This document shows positions 38,708-41,797 of a stretch of DNA of 64,000 nt, one piece after another (within the stretch, counting starts at the first letter, position 1; the number at the start of each line of letters is the position of its first letter). This stretch comes from Fimbriimonadales bacterium (GTDB taxonomy: Bacteria > Armatimonadota > Fimbriimonadia > Fimbriimonadales > GBS-DC): the NCBI GenBank assembly GCA_025061985.1, contig JANXAW010000026.1, positions 22,738 to 86,737 on the forward strand, read 5' to 3'. The notes beneath the pieces are model-generated. The model did not search any database. It saw only the letters and a program-made list of their open reading frames with translations, and was not told where the DNA came from. Both the position numbers and the translations under genes were made by a program.

Positions 38708-38772
38708 TTGACGCTTCCCACTCCACATGCTATAATATGCCCAGAATACGATTTCTGAGCAAATGCGCGCAT
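38708..38772 (+). promoter_or_regulatory. Near-consensus sigma70 promoter with downstream palindrome (candidate operator)
   Basis: TTGACG-N17-TATAAT with TG extended -10; ATGCGCGCAT palindrome at 38763-38772. Confidence 0.75.
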
Positions 38773-38803
38773 GTAGACAGCCCACCGCAGGGGGCGGGCA
38801 CGA

Positions 38804-40966
38804 ATGAAGCGTAATGCCATCTGTATCGTGGGTGCCACTCTACTGCTGCTTGAGGCGAGCTATGCGGACGAGCCGACCTATCCCGTGCAGTTTCGCCTCG
38901 TGCTGGAACGCCCTGCGGAACGGGTCTACTTGGCGGGCACTTTCAACGAATGGCAACCCCGCGCAACCCCGATGCAGCCCGACGCCGAGCGGCGCGTATG
39001 GACACTGACCCTGCACCTGCCTGCAGGAGCGCATCAGTACAAGTTTGTGGTCAACGGCACGGAGTGGCTGACTGACCCAAATGCGCCTGTGATTGACGAC
39101 GGGAACGGCAACCTCAACTCGGTGGTGTGGGTGGAGCCAGACGGCTACAACCGCCCCGCTGCCATAGGCGATGGGCACATCACGCGCAGCGGTATTCGCC
39201 ACAACCCCAACGACCTGCGCGACCGTAACCCCGTAGAAGGGCGACTTTACCTGCGCCTGCGCACCCGCAAAGCCGATGTGGAGCGCGTATGGCTACATTA
39301 CCGCGCGGGTAAACACACGCAGCGCGTTGCTATGACCCCTGCCGTTAGCGACGCCCTCTACACCTACTACCGCGCGGCGCTTCCTGAAACGAACCTTGAG
39401 TATTGGTTTGTGATTGAGGACGGCAAAGCACGGATACGCCTCCCCGCGGGCAACGCCGCGTTCCGCCATCGGCTGGGTGAACATCAGTTTGAAGTACCCA
39501 CTTGGGTGCAGGATGCGATTTTCTACCAAATCATGCCCGACCGCTTCTACAACGCCGACCCTACCAATGACCCTGACCCTGATCAGCCCATTGATTTCAC
39601 AGGGCGCAAGGAAGGCGACGGCTTCTATGGGGGCGACCTAAAGGGCATCCTGCACAAGCTGGACTACTTGCGCGATTTGGGCATCACGGCGCTGTACCTG
39701 AACCCTGTGTTTGCCTCGGTAACGCACCACAACTACGACACCGACGATTACGAGCGCGTAGACCCTGCATTGGGCACCGAGGAAGACCTCATTCAGCTCG
39801 CTCAGACGCTTCGCCAGCACGAGATGCGCCTCATCTTGGACGGCGTGTTCAACCATGTGGGCGTCTACTTCTTTGCGTTCCAAGACCTGCTGCGCCATCA
39901 GGAGCGCTCGGCGTTTCGCGACTGGTTCATTGTAGAGCGATTTCCCGTAGCGGTGGAGCCGAACCCGAACTACTGGGCGTGGTGGAACATCCCGTATATG
40001 CCTAAGTTGAACCATCAGAACCCCGCCGTGCGTCGCTACTTGCTGGGCGTGGTGATGCGCTGGACGCGCATGTTGCGCTTAGACGGCTGGCGACTGGATG
40101 TGCCGAATGAAGTGCCTGATGTGTTCTGGCGCGAGTTTCGCCCTGTAGTGCGCCGTGCAAACCCTGAGGCAGTTATCATTGGCGAGATTTGGGGCGATGC
40201 AGGGCGCTGGCTGCAGGGGGATATGTTTGACAGCGTGATGAACTATCTCTGGCGGGCAGCGGTGCTAGGCTTTGTGGCGCACGGCACGCTCAAGCCTTCT
40301 CAGTTTGACCAGCGCATGGCGCATCTGCAAGTGATGTACCCGCGCCAGAGCCTGTATGCGATGTACAATATGCTCAGCAGCCACGATACGCCGCGCTTTC
40401 GGCGCGAGTGTGGGGGTGATTTGCAGCGCGTGCGCTTGGGCTTGCTGCTTCAGTTCACTAGCATTGGCGCACCCGCTATTTACTACGGCGACGAAATCGG
40501 CATGGATGGGGGTGGCATTCCCGACAACCGTCGCCCGATGCGCTTTGAGCTGAGCGACGAGGAGCGTGCCCTGCGCGAATTCGTAAAGCAGCTGATTGCG
40601 CTGCGTAAGGCGGAGCCTGCCCTGCGTCGCGGCGAGTGGCAAACCTTGCTTGTAGACGATGTCAAAAGCGTCTACGCCTTCGCACGGTACTTGGACTCCC
40701 CTGCCCCTCAAACGAACCCTGTGGTGGTTGCGCTCAACACGAGCACTCAACCGCAGACGGTTAGCCTACCCGTTGTTGGCGACGCGCCTCGTTGGCGCGT
40801 AGCCCTTAGCACTTACGATTTGGAGCAGGCGATTTTTCCTGCTTCGAACGGGCGGATTACGCTGACGCTACCGCCCCTTGCGGGAACCGTGTTGGTTCCC
40901 ACAAACAACCCACAGCAAGGAGGGAATGCACAATGCAGTTCACACAGCGACGTGGCTTCACTTTGA
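38804..40966 (+). CDS. Secreted GH13 alpha-amylase/neopullulanase-type enzyme with N-terminal CBM48-like domain
   Basis: Signal peptide; [10 protein letters not shown]...[40 protein letters not shown]. Confidence 0.92.
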
Positions 40967-41745
40967 TTGAGCTGTTGGTCGTGATTGCGATTATCGCCAT
41001 CTTAGCGGCGATTCTGTTCCCTGTGTTCGCGCAAGCGCGTGAGAAAGCGCGCCAGACAACGTGTCTCAACAACCTGCGTCAAGCGGGCATTGCTCTGTTG
41101 ATGTACGCAAAAGACTACGACAACTACGTGCCTATCTTTTGCTTTGCAGAGTACTACCAGTTTGCAGCGCGTATCCAGCCGTATGTCAAGAATCGCGACA
41201 TTTTCCGATGCCCATCCTCGTCGTTTCCGCAAGGCACTGCTCAACTGATTCAGCGGGACAACGGGTTTGGCGACTTCATGACGGCTCCGAACCATCCACG
41301 CGTAGGCTTGGGCACTTCTCAGCGAGGGCGCCAGCACTACTTTGACGACATCTACCCGCCGATGGACTACCTTGTCCACAACGGTCTGGGTGGCTATGGG
41401 CTTTACGGCTGCGACTATCGGCCGTCTCAAATTGACACGGGGCGTGTGACTCGTCCGTCTCGCGCTGTTGCGATGATCGACCTGCCTCCCAGCCGCATGC
41501 AGTGGCCTGGTCCGCAGTTTTGGACCAGTCGCCTTGGCGGCAACTTCAAGGGGCGCCACTTCGAAGGCTCCGTTGTGTTGCACCTTGACGGGCACTCTAA
41601 GTGGTATCAGTATCAGCGGCTCTACCCGACCGATCGTGGACAGCAAAACTATTCCGAGCCGCGCTGCGATGATCCTGACCCAATGGCGGTCTACACGTGG
41701 TATTGCTGGGGCTACGAGTGGGGGCCGCCCGAGGATCGCAACTAA
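40933..41745 (+). CDS. Prepilin-type N-terminal cleavage/methylation protein with H-X9-DG motif (DUF1559-like)
   Basis: [70 protein letters not shown] inside the GH13 3' end. Confidence 0.93.
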
Positions 41746-41762
41746 GCTGTTAGGGTAGCCCT

Positions 41763-41797
41763 GTTGCTCAGGGGCGCGGTGGGCGCCCCTGAGCGAC
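41763..41797. terminator. Hairpin between convergent genes (probable bidirectional terminator)
   Basis: GTTGCTCAGGGGCGC-GGTGG-GCGCCCCTGAGCGAC. Confidence 0.7.

Follow-up and report, generated by a model that had tools for sequence, protein, structure and literature searches.

We analysed a stretch of 64,000 nucleotides (the window), positions 22738-86737 of contig C20 in a 1.35-Mb assembly that is 66% complete. At 38708-41797, on the plus strand, a single unit runs from a promoter through an open reading frame (ORF) for a GH13 glycoside hydrolase and an ORF for a prepilin of the DUF1559/H-X9-DG type to a hairpin. We predict that this unit, from a Fimbriimonadales-like hot-spring bacterium of the Armatimonadota, is a conserved alpha-glucan operon under LacI control, and that its GH13 enzyme is exported, catalytically intact and of the neopullulanase type. 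The prepilin may be an alpha-glucan-specific type IV filament module, capturing substrate for the GH13 or delivering it to the enzyme, a reading that we favour tentatively, giving it not quite an even chance. An earlier reading of the letters of this DNA (the sequence-only reading) had proposed such a pilin-based glycan-capture module. Its promoter-to-hairpin unit holding just these two genes was found as described, and the module now gains from conserved, apparently coupled genes, predicted LacI control and a dedicated prepilin clade, but two points were not borne out, namely a family-wide enrichment of these prepilins next to carbohydrate-active enzymes and the palindrome ATGCGCGCAT as the conserved control site. 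The features of the unit are the following.

38708..38736, plus strand: sigma-70-type promoter with TG (extended -10); 11 of 12 consensus positions; conserved in orthologous loci
38742..38757, no strand assigned: LacI-type operator CAGAATACGATTTCTG; kept in 11 of 11 aligned upstream regions; weight-matrix matches
38763..38772, no strand assigned: ATGCGCGCAT palindrome; not conserved (1 of 11 aligned upstream regions, the window's own)
38804..40966, plus strand: predicted exported CBM48-GH13 of the neopullulanase/maltogenic amylase/cyclomaltodextrinase type, 720 aa; Pfam and PDB matches, invariant catalytic residues
40918..40923, plus strand: AGGAGG ribosome-binding site (RBS) serving the prepilin gene; within the GH13 ORF, 9 nt ahead of the prepilin start codon (ATG)
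40933..41745, plus strand: DUF1559/H-X9-DG prepilin, 270 aa; motif, Pfam, AlphaFold2 model, clade membership
40934..40936, plus strand: TGC, GH13 codon 711; TGA in relatives; its loss adds 10 codons
41763..41797, no strand assigned: 15-bp G+C-rich hairpin without T-run; lies between the stop codons of the prepilin gene and a convergent gene

Conservation of the GH13-prepilin pair

Among 41 genomes of relatives, 25 contained the GH13, and 20 loci were fetched, of which 19 were not the window's own. Four of these 19 ended inside or at the GH13 gene, at contig ends. In all of the 15 loci that could be assessed, the prepilin gene lay directly downstream of the GH13 gene, the lowest GH13 identity being 39%, in another family of the order, and the genes flanking the pair were unrelated from locus to locus. 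A phylum sample of 151 genomes contained the GH13 in 40 (E <= 1e-90) and provided 27 new loci, which were distributed as follows.

Family f3, same order, 5 loci: lacI upstream in 5/5; prepilin adjoining GH13 in 5/5, downstream
Family f18, 9 loci: lacI upstream in 9/9; prepilin adjoining GH13 in 0/7 assessable
Four other families, 13 loci: lacI upstream in 0/13; prepilin in 2/13 (L143, L145), both upstream

The synteny on which the sequence-only reading had staked its proposal was thus found in all loci of the order that could be assessed, and a pair as constant as this is not a product of chance. That a member of an abundant family landed behind the GH13 gene in the ancestor of the order and was merely inherited, with no functional link, we find hardly credible. 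This incomplete genome has 21 prepilin-like matches and a complete one from the same genus has 53, so that chance neighbours are expected for a few per cent of genes, and outside the order a prepilin adjoins the GH13 in just 2 of 20 assessable loci. However, the pair persists in loci that differ on both sides of it and whose GH13 identity is as low as 38-40%, the start/stop overlap has been retained, the locus L145 again has a prepilin of the same clade beside the GH13, in the opposite order, and a second prepilin gene carries the same operator (see below).

Further evidence for a specific association was obtained from a tree of 128 prepilins, comprising 20 GH13-linked proteins, 21 paralogues from the window genome and a genome of the same genus, and 87 proteins from a broad sample; the proteins from paralogue loci and from the broad sample were restricted to 200-400 or 200-340 residues. 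Eighteen of the 20 GH13-linked prepilins formed one clade with a support of 98 in the Shimodaira-Hasegawa-like approximate likelihood ratio test (SH-aLRT), and none of the 108 other prepilins fell inside it. The clade includes the prepilin of L145, which comes from another family. Those of L149 and L143 lie outside and are different paralogues in the same neighbourhood. The window prepilin therefore appears, from this tree, to belong to a dedicated clade found only beside this GH13.

Promoter, operator and a predicted LacI regulon

The promoter consists of TTGACG (38708-38713) and TATAAT (38731-38736), separated by 17 nt, with TG before the -10 hexamer. It is the sole promoter-like site in 38300-42100, and shuffled sequences averaged 1.3 sites at a looser threshold of 9 of 12 positions. 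Eleven orthologous upstream regions were aligned, two more having been dropped because the anchor pattern missed them; TATAAT was present in all 11 and TTGAC in 10, which upholds the promoter as it had been proposed. We also considered an invertible promoter and rejected it, as only weak inverted repeats surround the site and a single orientation was seen in 11 of 11 loci.

The aligned regions share a conserved 16-mer, CAGAATACGATTTCTC, which begins 6 nt past the -10 hexamer. Its copy in the window, CAGAATACGATTTCTG, ends in G and is a pseudo-palindrome with a central CG at 38749-38750. LacI operators are pseudo-palindromes around a central CG. The nearby palindrome ATGCGCGCAT, which the sequence-only reading had singled out, is indeed present at 38763-38772, but its absence from ten of the 11 upstream regions argues against a conserved control site. 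With a weight matrix derived from the 11 operator sites, five sites reached 18 bits or more in the genome, as compared with none in the reversed genome.

Site 1 (>=18 bits): this operon, 38742-38757
Site 2 (>=18 bits): promoter of a LacI-family gene, C3:19023-20036
Site 3 (>=18 bits): secreted 343-aa protein, C14
Site 4 (26.7 bits): C31:21466-23647 (L029:2047-4225), before a 257-aa PEP-CTERM gene
Site 5 (>=18 bits): C28, at the contig end, within the reading frame for a secreted protein that weakly matches alpha-amylase

On C31, the operator is followed by the 257-aa PEP-CTERM gene, then by a gene for a 302-aa H-X9-DG prepilin and then by a SpoIID-like gene. Since the five sites include the LacI gene's own promoter, the unit is predicted to be a member of a small LacI regulon, together with this second prepilin. 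In the more distant relatives L015, L018, L019 and L020, a LacI-family gene stands directly upstream on the same strand, and the motif precedes lacI in these lacI-GH13-prepilin operons of other genera, as it does in L140, L150 and L151. In the phylum sample, the motif (>=14 bits) was found before lacI in 7 of 9 loci of family f18 and in 3 of 5 of family f3 (the same L140, L150 and L151). A palindromic operator with a central CG is thus found at the promoter and is common to the regulator's own gene, and the LacI regulator appears to have been relocated away from the operon in this genus.

The order of genes around site 5 (C28:1-5697; L028, L124) is a prepilin, a 114-aa ORF, a large DUF6785/DUF6784 membrane protein, a DUF4832 protein and the secreted protein that bears the operator.

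Gene junction and probable terminator

As the sequence-only reading had stated, the RBS and the start of the prepilin gene (40933) lie inside the 3' end of the GH13 gene, and the two genes overlap by 34 nt. Seven loci (L002-L005, L008, L012 and L016) have a 4-nt ATGA stop/start overlap instead, and the comparison of relatives shows read-throughs of a single TGA. The 34-nt overlap of the window is therefore explained by the loss of the ATGA stop (TGA to TGC). P0123, a database protein that is 98% identical to the window GH13, has 710 aa, and a metagenome contig (run X2) over 40840-41010 showed no differences from the window version. To judge from this junction, the GH13 and the prepilin form a translationally coupled unit.

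The hairpin that had been proposed to end the unit was confirmed as a strong one: its free energy is -41 kcal/mol (z -5.2), and none of 200 shuffles folded equally well. A terminator scan missed it because it has no T-run. Strong hairpins are found 3' of the prepilin stop in most orthologous loci, and in the window the hairpin, which is likely to be a two-way terminator without T-run, abuts a convergent gene (41800-43623, minus strand, 607 aa) at its stop codon. No Rfam family was matched in a scan of 38000-42500. We considered the convergent 607-aa protein as a part of the system, another 607-aa protein being encoded 3' of a prepilin gene on C14, and rejected it, as the two show no similarity (E 0.77).

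The GH13 enzyme

The GH13 protein consists of a signal peptide (residues ~1-21), a CBM48 (34-113), an N-domain (131-210), a catalytic domain (242-570) and a C-domain (593-691). Pfam matches above the cut-offs were obtained with 218.6 bits (cut-off 22; E 2.6e-64) for the catalytic (beta/alpha)8 domain (Alpha-amylase, PF00128), 36.6 bits (cut-off 23; E 6e-09) for the N-terminal Ig-like domain (Alpha-amylase_N, PF02903) and, for the CBM48, 35.7 bits (cut-off 22.4; E 1.1e-08) with PF02922 (CBM_48) and 63.9 bits (cut-off 26.8; E 1.6e-17) with PF16561 (AMPK1_CBM); the C-terminal domain was also matched. The closest PDB sequences (the top 14) were those of TVAII, neopullulanase, maltogenic amylase and cyclomaltodextrinase (CDase), with E-values from 1.4e-129 to 2.5e-114 over residues 131-697. 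The conserved regions GWRLDV, GEIW and SHDT are present, D432, E461, H527 and D528 are invariant in 101 homologues, and the catalytic Asp/Glu/Asp (D432, E461, D528) align to TVAII. The protein also contains the stretch MPKLN, a signature of the neopullulanase group. All cut-offs of the NCBIfam equivalogs were missed (e.g., 344 as compared with 568 bits), so that the type but not the exact substrate is predicted.

The Sec-type signal peptide was read by eye, and a hydrophobic leader was likewise seen in 18 of the 18 orthologues shown. The leader and the CBM48 together indicate that the enzyme works outside the cytoplasm. The secreted CBM48-GH13 enzyme of the sequence-only reading is thus supported, and the protein is probably an active alpha-glucan hydrolase, exported and equipped with a starch/glycogen-binding module. 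Two orthologues, in L016 (G019) and L017 (G005), are broken into 2-3 frames, through a frameshift or an assembly error, with the prepilin gene behind them intact.

The prepilin and its predicted fold

The prepilin has the leader MQFTQRRG, with predicted cleavage before F9, between RRG and FTLIEL (G-1, F+1, E+5), an N-terminal helix (residues 11-61) and a head domain (~62-270). The GFTLIELL-type prepilin-peptidase motif noted earlier corresponds to matches above cut-off with N_methyl (PF07963, 37.2 as compared with 21.2 bits, E 1.8e-09) and with TIGR02532 (36.5 as compared with 16.3 bits). DUF1559 (PF07596) was matched with 33.4 bits (cut-off 23.3; E 6.3e-08) over positions 2-33 only of the 268 in the profile. 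The H-X9-DG motif is literally present, from H209 to D219-G220 (nt 41557-41592). TIGR04294 was not reported for the window prepilin at E <= 10, a search in which the HMMER filters may drop it, and the clade-mate in L145 scored 21.5 bits (cut-off 19).

An AlphaFold2 model of the prepilin, built from a 115-sequence alignment, had a mean predicted local distance difference test (pLDDT) score of 93.5 and showed an N-terminal helix of 50 residues joined to a head that consists mostly of loops and has a small sheet. A structure search (VIA) covered 48,161 representative chains. Of the 50 matches listed, the first 3, and 12 of the first 14, were pilins or pseudopilins, with Z-scores of only 5.0-3.2. 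The top ones were PilA4 (6xxd, Z 5.0), EpsG (4lw9) and a type IVb pilin (both Z 4.4; for EpsG, 94 residues at 3.1 A) and PulG (5wda, Z 3.5). With modest confidence, the model suggests a type IV pilin fold with large insertions. No solute-binding protein and no two-lobed periplasmic-binding-protein fold was found among the 50 matches listed. The head of the window prepilin is rich in aromatic residues, as the sequence-only reading had remarked, but this proved common to all paralogues (see below). The idea that the pseudopilin takes the place of a substrate-binding or SusD-like component comes down to an analogy, as the head is pilin-like and no solute-binding protein is among the matches listed. 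A complex prediction with GH13 residues 24-705 and the prepilin head (36-270), each supplied with an alignment, gave a score of 0.00 and a mark of 0.32, i.e., 'no answer', and was used neither way.

These structural data bear on the possibility that the prepilin is an unpolymerised partner anchored in the inner membrane, which would bind or sense dextrins and pass the GH13 products to a transporter, as a bacterial counterpart of the archaeal bindosome proteins. The Pfam name of DUF1559 is SBP_bac_10, and PMC2754498, where it treats these proteins, calls them a solute-binding protein family; the NCBI name of a relative is 'DUF1559 family PulG-like putative transporter'. Moreover, parts of classical sugar ATP-binding cassette (ABC) systems are few in the genus (in G012, 8 permease-domain and 2 SBP_bac_8 matches), and the account of the bindosome in PMC3047682 provides a precedent, class III signal peptides being present on its sugar-binding proteins. 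Against this, the best structural matches are mostly pilins and none of those listed has a periplasmic-binding-protein fold, no transporter gene was found in the unit or adjoining it in any of the orthologous loci examined, and the near-identical helix of the paralogues, with its Glu+5, exceeds the needs of a membrane anchor. We consider this explanation quite improbable. A simpler version, in which the prepilin would replace missing ABC binding proteins, was rejected, as the matches in G012 indicate that classical systems exist.

Paralogues and filament machinery

A conspicuous feature of the family is the constancy of its N-termini. At least 30 of the 33 mature N-terminal residues are common to 12 of 18 paralogues, as fits subunits for one assembly machine and one filament core. 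Gene conversion keeping the 5' ends of the prepilin genes alike was considered and rejected; the third-position identity was 0.51, as compared with 0.39 expected, and the constraint is mostly at the protein level. The genome has one A24 prepilin peptidase (PF01478, 1 match) with a pilB-pilT-pilC cluster beside it (contig C44), the PilT match reaching 514 bits (cut-off 319). A PilQ-type secretin gene adjoins aroK/aroB, and a further, short GspE-like ATPase adjoins a prepilin-like gene. The window itself contains an orphan second platform protein of the GspF/PilC type (46749-47957, minus strand; TIGR02120, 233.6 bits, cut-off 424), among thiolase and DnaJ-TPR genes.

This equipment could also serve a different function, in which the prepilin is an adaptor for secretion or display: a cargo-specific pseudopilin that, as in a type II secretion system, helps to move the GH13 through the outer membrane or keeps it at the cell surface or on a filament. 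Several observations would agree with this. The prepilin N-terminus is nearest to GspG among the NCBIfam models (TIGR01710, 37.4 bits); the start/stop coupling fits products made in a fixed ratio; the GH13 has just a Sec leader, so that a diderm needs a further export step; the genome contains several GspE/PilB-type ATPases, two platform proteins and a secretin; and a different prepilin paralogue fills the same place in L149. However, the GspG score is far under the cut-off of 88.85 and the match is limited to the N-terminal helix (residues 7-65), the NCBIfam cut-off of PilA not being reached by the prepilin either; units of lacI and prepilin exist with no enzyme (L040, L120); in family f18, GH13 orthologues with the same leader lack the prepilin; and no cargo-specific pseudopilin is known to us. 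On balance, we find this adaptor role somewhat unlikely.

The association with sugar regulators extends beyond the GH13 locus. Two of the four true LacI genes of the complete genome stand directly upstream of DUF1559 prepilin genes, and in the enzyme-free units just mentioned the lacI gene likewise lies directly upstream of the prepilin gene. (A fifth, false match to the LacI helix-turn-helix, in L042:13516-16161, minus strand, of G012, is a SpoVR-like gene split by a LAGLIDADG intein.) A broad sample was collected with the prepilin alignment; because this search was saturated by conserved N-terminal patterns, its 78 loci contain assorted paralogues from many phyla rather than orthologues. Same-strand partners of the prepilins in these loci included LacI/GntR regulators (L063, L076, L096, L120), a GH106 with a major facilitator superfamily (MFS) transporter, heparinase-like lyases, sulfatases and CBM-bearing proteins. 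Arrangements of regulator, prepilin and glycanase are seen in other phyla, as in L063 (GntR-prepilin-GH106-MFS), L067, L076, L077 and L096. Secretion or pilus machinery partnered the prepilin in just two of the 78 loci. LacI was found in 4 of the 78, at best a mild excess, and we claim no enrichment.

Other features of prepilin loci were recorded as well. In 14 loci of the broad sample (L048, L052, L058, L068, L071, L082, L087, L094, L101, L114, L116, L118, L120, L121), a small ORF of 97-202 aa with no Pfam match lies 3' of the prepilin gene on the same strand; the window unit has no such ORF. GFO/IDH/MocA oxidoreductases occur at most three genes from a prepilin gene in 5 of 19 regions of the window genome (L022, L030, L031, L036, L039), and in L022 the oxidoreductase gene is directly upstream on the same strand. 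A second DUF1559/H-X9-DG prepilin of the window (11106-11993, minus strand, 295 aa) is encoded 4 nt upstream of a DUF58 gene (9791-11101, minus strand), with MotA/MotB on one side of the pair, a DeoC-type aldolase on the other and no glycanase near. About 100 nt coding for the mature prepilin N-terminus are common to many other contigs at 90% identity or more, and at 40884-41091 three hot-spring metagenome runs show a 10- to 30-fold jump in summed contig depth, loose ends lying at 40951-40966 and 41028-41057.

A possible role in alpha-glucan capture

We tentatively prefer the following mechanism for the filament module. The prepilin would be cut by the single prepilin peptidase of the genome and built, via its N-terminal helix, into a type IV filament that is common to the paralogues and could be either a retractile pilus or a pseudopilus. 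When an alpha-glucan derepresses the operon, the alpha-glucan-specific head would be added to the filament, and it may then hold starch-like polymers or dextrins, or haul them to the cell envelope, where the GH13 acts. The prepilin would thus be a substrate-specific accessory of the enzyme rather than a structural pilus gene.

Several findings weigh against this proposal. In family f18, lacI and the operator are retained with the GH13 orthologues, yet none of the 7 assessable loci has a prepilin, so that the GH13 can do without it, and these loci weigh against every model in which the prepilin is an essential partner. In 11 of the 13 loci of the other families, neither lacI nor a prepilin is present. 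The prepilin tree was a quick search with midpoint root, and its clades have SH-aLRT support only. The similarity of the model to pilins is low in score (Z 5.0 at best), and Foldseek gave no match in the PDB at E <= 0.001. The aromatic content of the head (15.5% F/W/Y, as compared with a genome mean of 8.1%, sd 2.7) lies in the range of all paralogues (10-16%), and there is therefore nothing glucan-specific in it. Finally, the three genes on each side of the 21 prepilin genes of this genome (131 ORFs) were mostly housekeeping genes by Pfam. A Pfam-recognised glycoside hydrolase was the direct neighbour of just one of the 21, the window's, and GH-like genes were found within three genes of two more. 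The enrichment that the sequence-only reading had anticipated was thus not seen in the window genome, and a general 'pilin-PUL' (from polysaccharide utilisation locus, PUL) is not supported as a rule for the family.

Extending the filament module to the whole family, one might imagine the DUF1559/H-X9-DG prepilins as interchangeable, substrate-specific heads of one retractile type IV filament. Much as competence pili take in DNA, the filament would catch polymers in the medium and pull them into the periplasm through a secretin, and every sugar regulon would switch on its own head and enzymes. This generalisation seems to us unlikely. If true, it would provide the polysaccharide-import route of Armatimonadota and PVC (Planctomycetes, Verrucomicrobia, Chlamydiae) bacteria, which lack SusCD, and would name the subunits of the dextran-binding fibres of planctomycetes.

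Genomic surroundings

The unit is flanked by housekeeping neighbours, namely genes for a pyrophosphatase, an argininosuccinate synthase, an alpha/beta hydrolase and a reductase. In agreement with the sequence-only reading, no family of sugar ABC, TonB-dependent or SusCD transporters was detected by Pfam among the 54 window ORFs scanned, and no SusC-type TonB-dependent transporter or SusD was found among these ORFs or in the flanks of the orthologous loci. The closest proteins are assigned to Armatimonadota or Fimbriimonadales in the databases. No RNA run was listed for 38700-41800, whereas three hot-springs-metagenome DNA runs contained 0.65-0.79 of the sequence words from this part, and one of these runs may be the source. 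Elsewhere in the window (26737-29451, plus strand), a gene for a 904-aa GH2-family protein lies 3' of a GT2 gene, with no prepilin neighbour.

Comparison with known systems

The enzyme shares with the neopullulanase/TVAII group its N-domain, the catalytic Asp/Glu/Asp and MPKLN, and differs from it by its signal peptide and an extra N-terminal CBM48. Like type IV pilins and GspG/PulG, the window prepilin has the G-1/F+1/E+5 leader, a long N-terminal helix and, in the model, a beta-sheet head. Unlike them, it has a head about twice as large, with long insertions, and no pilin sequence match past residue ~65; its gene stands in an enzyme operon under a sugar repressor rather than in a pil/gsp cluster, and it is one of at least 21 paralogues.

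With the DUF1559/H-X9-DG families of Planctomycetota, Verrucomicrobiota and their allies, the prepilin has in common an N-terminal part above the Pfam cut-off, the literal motif and the many paralogues; only profile positions 2-33 are matched, and, unlike these families, the window member is tied to one enzyme partner and its operator is defined. The family is among the largest paralogous families of Planctomycetota, Verrucomicrobiota, Lentisphaerota and Armatimonadota, and the literature that we found assigns it no function. For instance, the passages with paralogue counts (68 for P. limnophila, 74 for R. baltica; PMC10632474, PMC2754498) do not give one.

We found no published description of prepilin-glycoside hydrolase operons for Armatimonadetes or Lentisphaerae. 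What appears to be new is the conserved GH13-prepilin pairing, with its ATGA-type overlap in relatives, its LacI operator and its dedicated prepilin clade. The locus gives a testable role to a very large family that has none, in the form of a small, clean test case with an enzyme of known chemistry, a clade-specific prepilin, a defined operator and a candidate repressor. It also bears on polysaccharide uptake in bacteria without SusCD or TonB systems. In the polysaccharide utilisation loci of Bacteroidota, SusC/SusD are encoded with a regulator and glycanases. The window unit resembles these loci in combining a regulator, an exported glycanase and a non-catalytic accessory in one substrate-specific unit, and differs in that the accessory is a prepilin and that SusC/TonB-dependent transporters and SusD are missing among the ORFs scanned.

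Filaments that bind polysaccharides have been described in DUF1559-rich bacteria. Gold-labelled dextran was seen on the pili-like fibres of two planctomycetes, in an account whose passages on the fibres do not name the subunits (Boedeker et al., PMC5394234), and type IV pili aid chitin adhesion in Fimbriiglobus (PMC11131199). These cases are similar to our proposal in that filaments bind the polysaccharide before its entry into the periplasm, but they concern a different phylum, and their descriptions, as far as they deal with the fibres, identify no subunits and draw no link to DUF1559 or to an enzyme operon. In Sulfolobus solfataricus, sugar-binding proteins whose signal peptides are of the class III, pilin type (PMC3047682) are assembled into the bindosome by the Bas system. 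Its members are true binding proteins of ABC transporters, encoded with their transporters, whereas the window unit combines a pilin-like fold with a hydrolase partner and has no linked transporter. In both systems, a pilin-type leader is found on proteins of sugar acquisition, by prediction in the window, and on this account the bindosome is the nearest known case.

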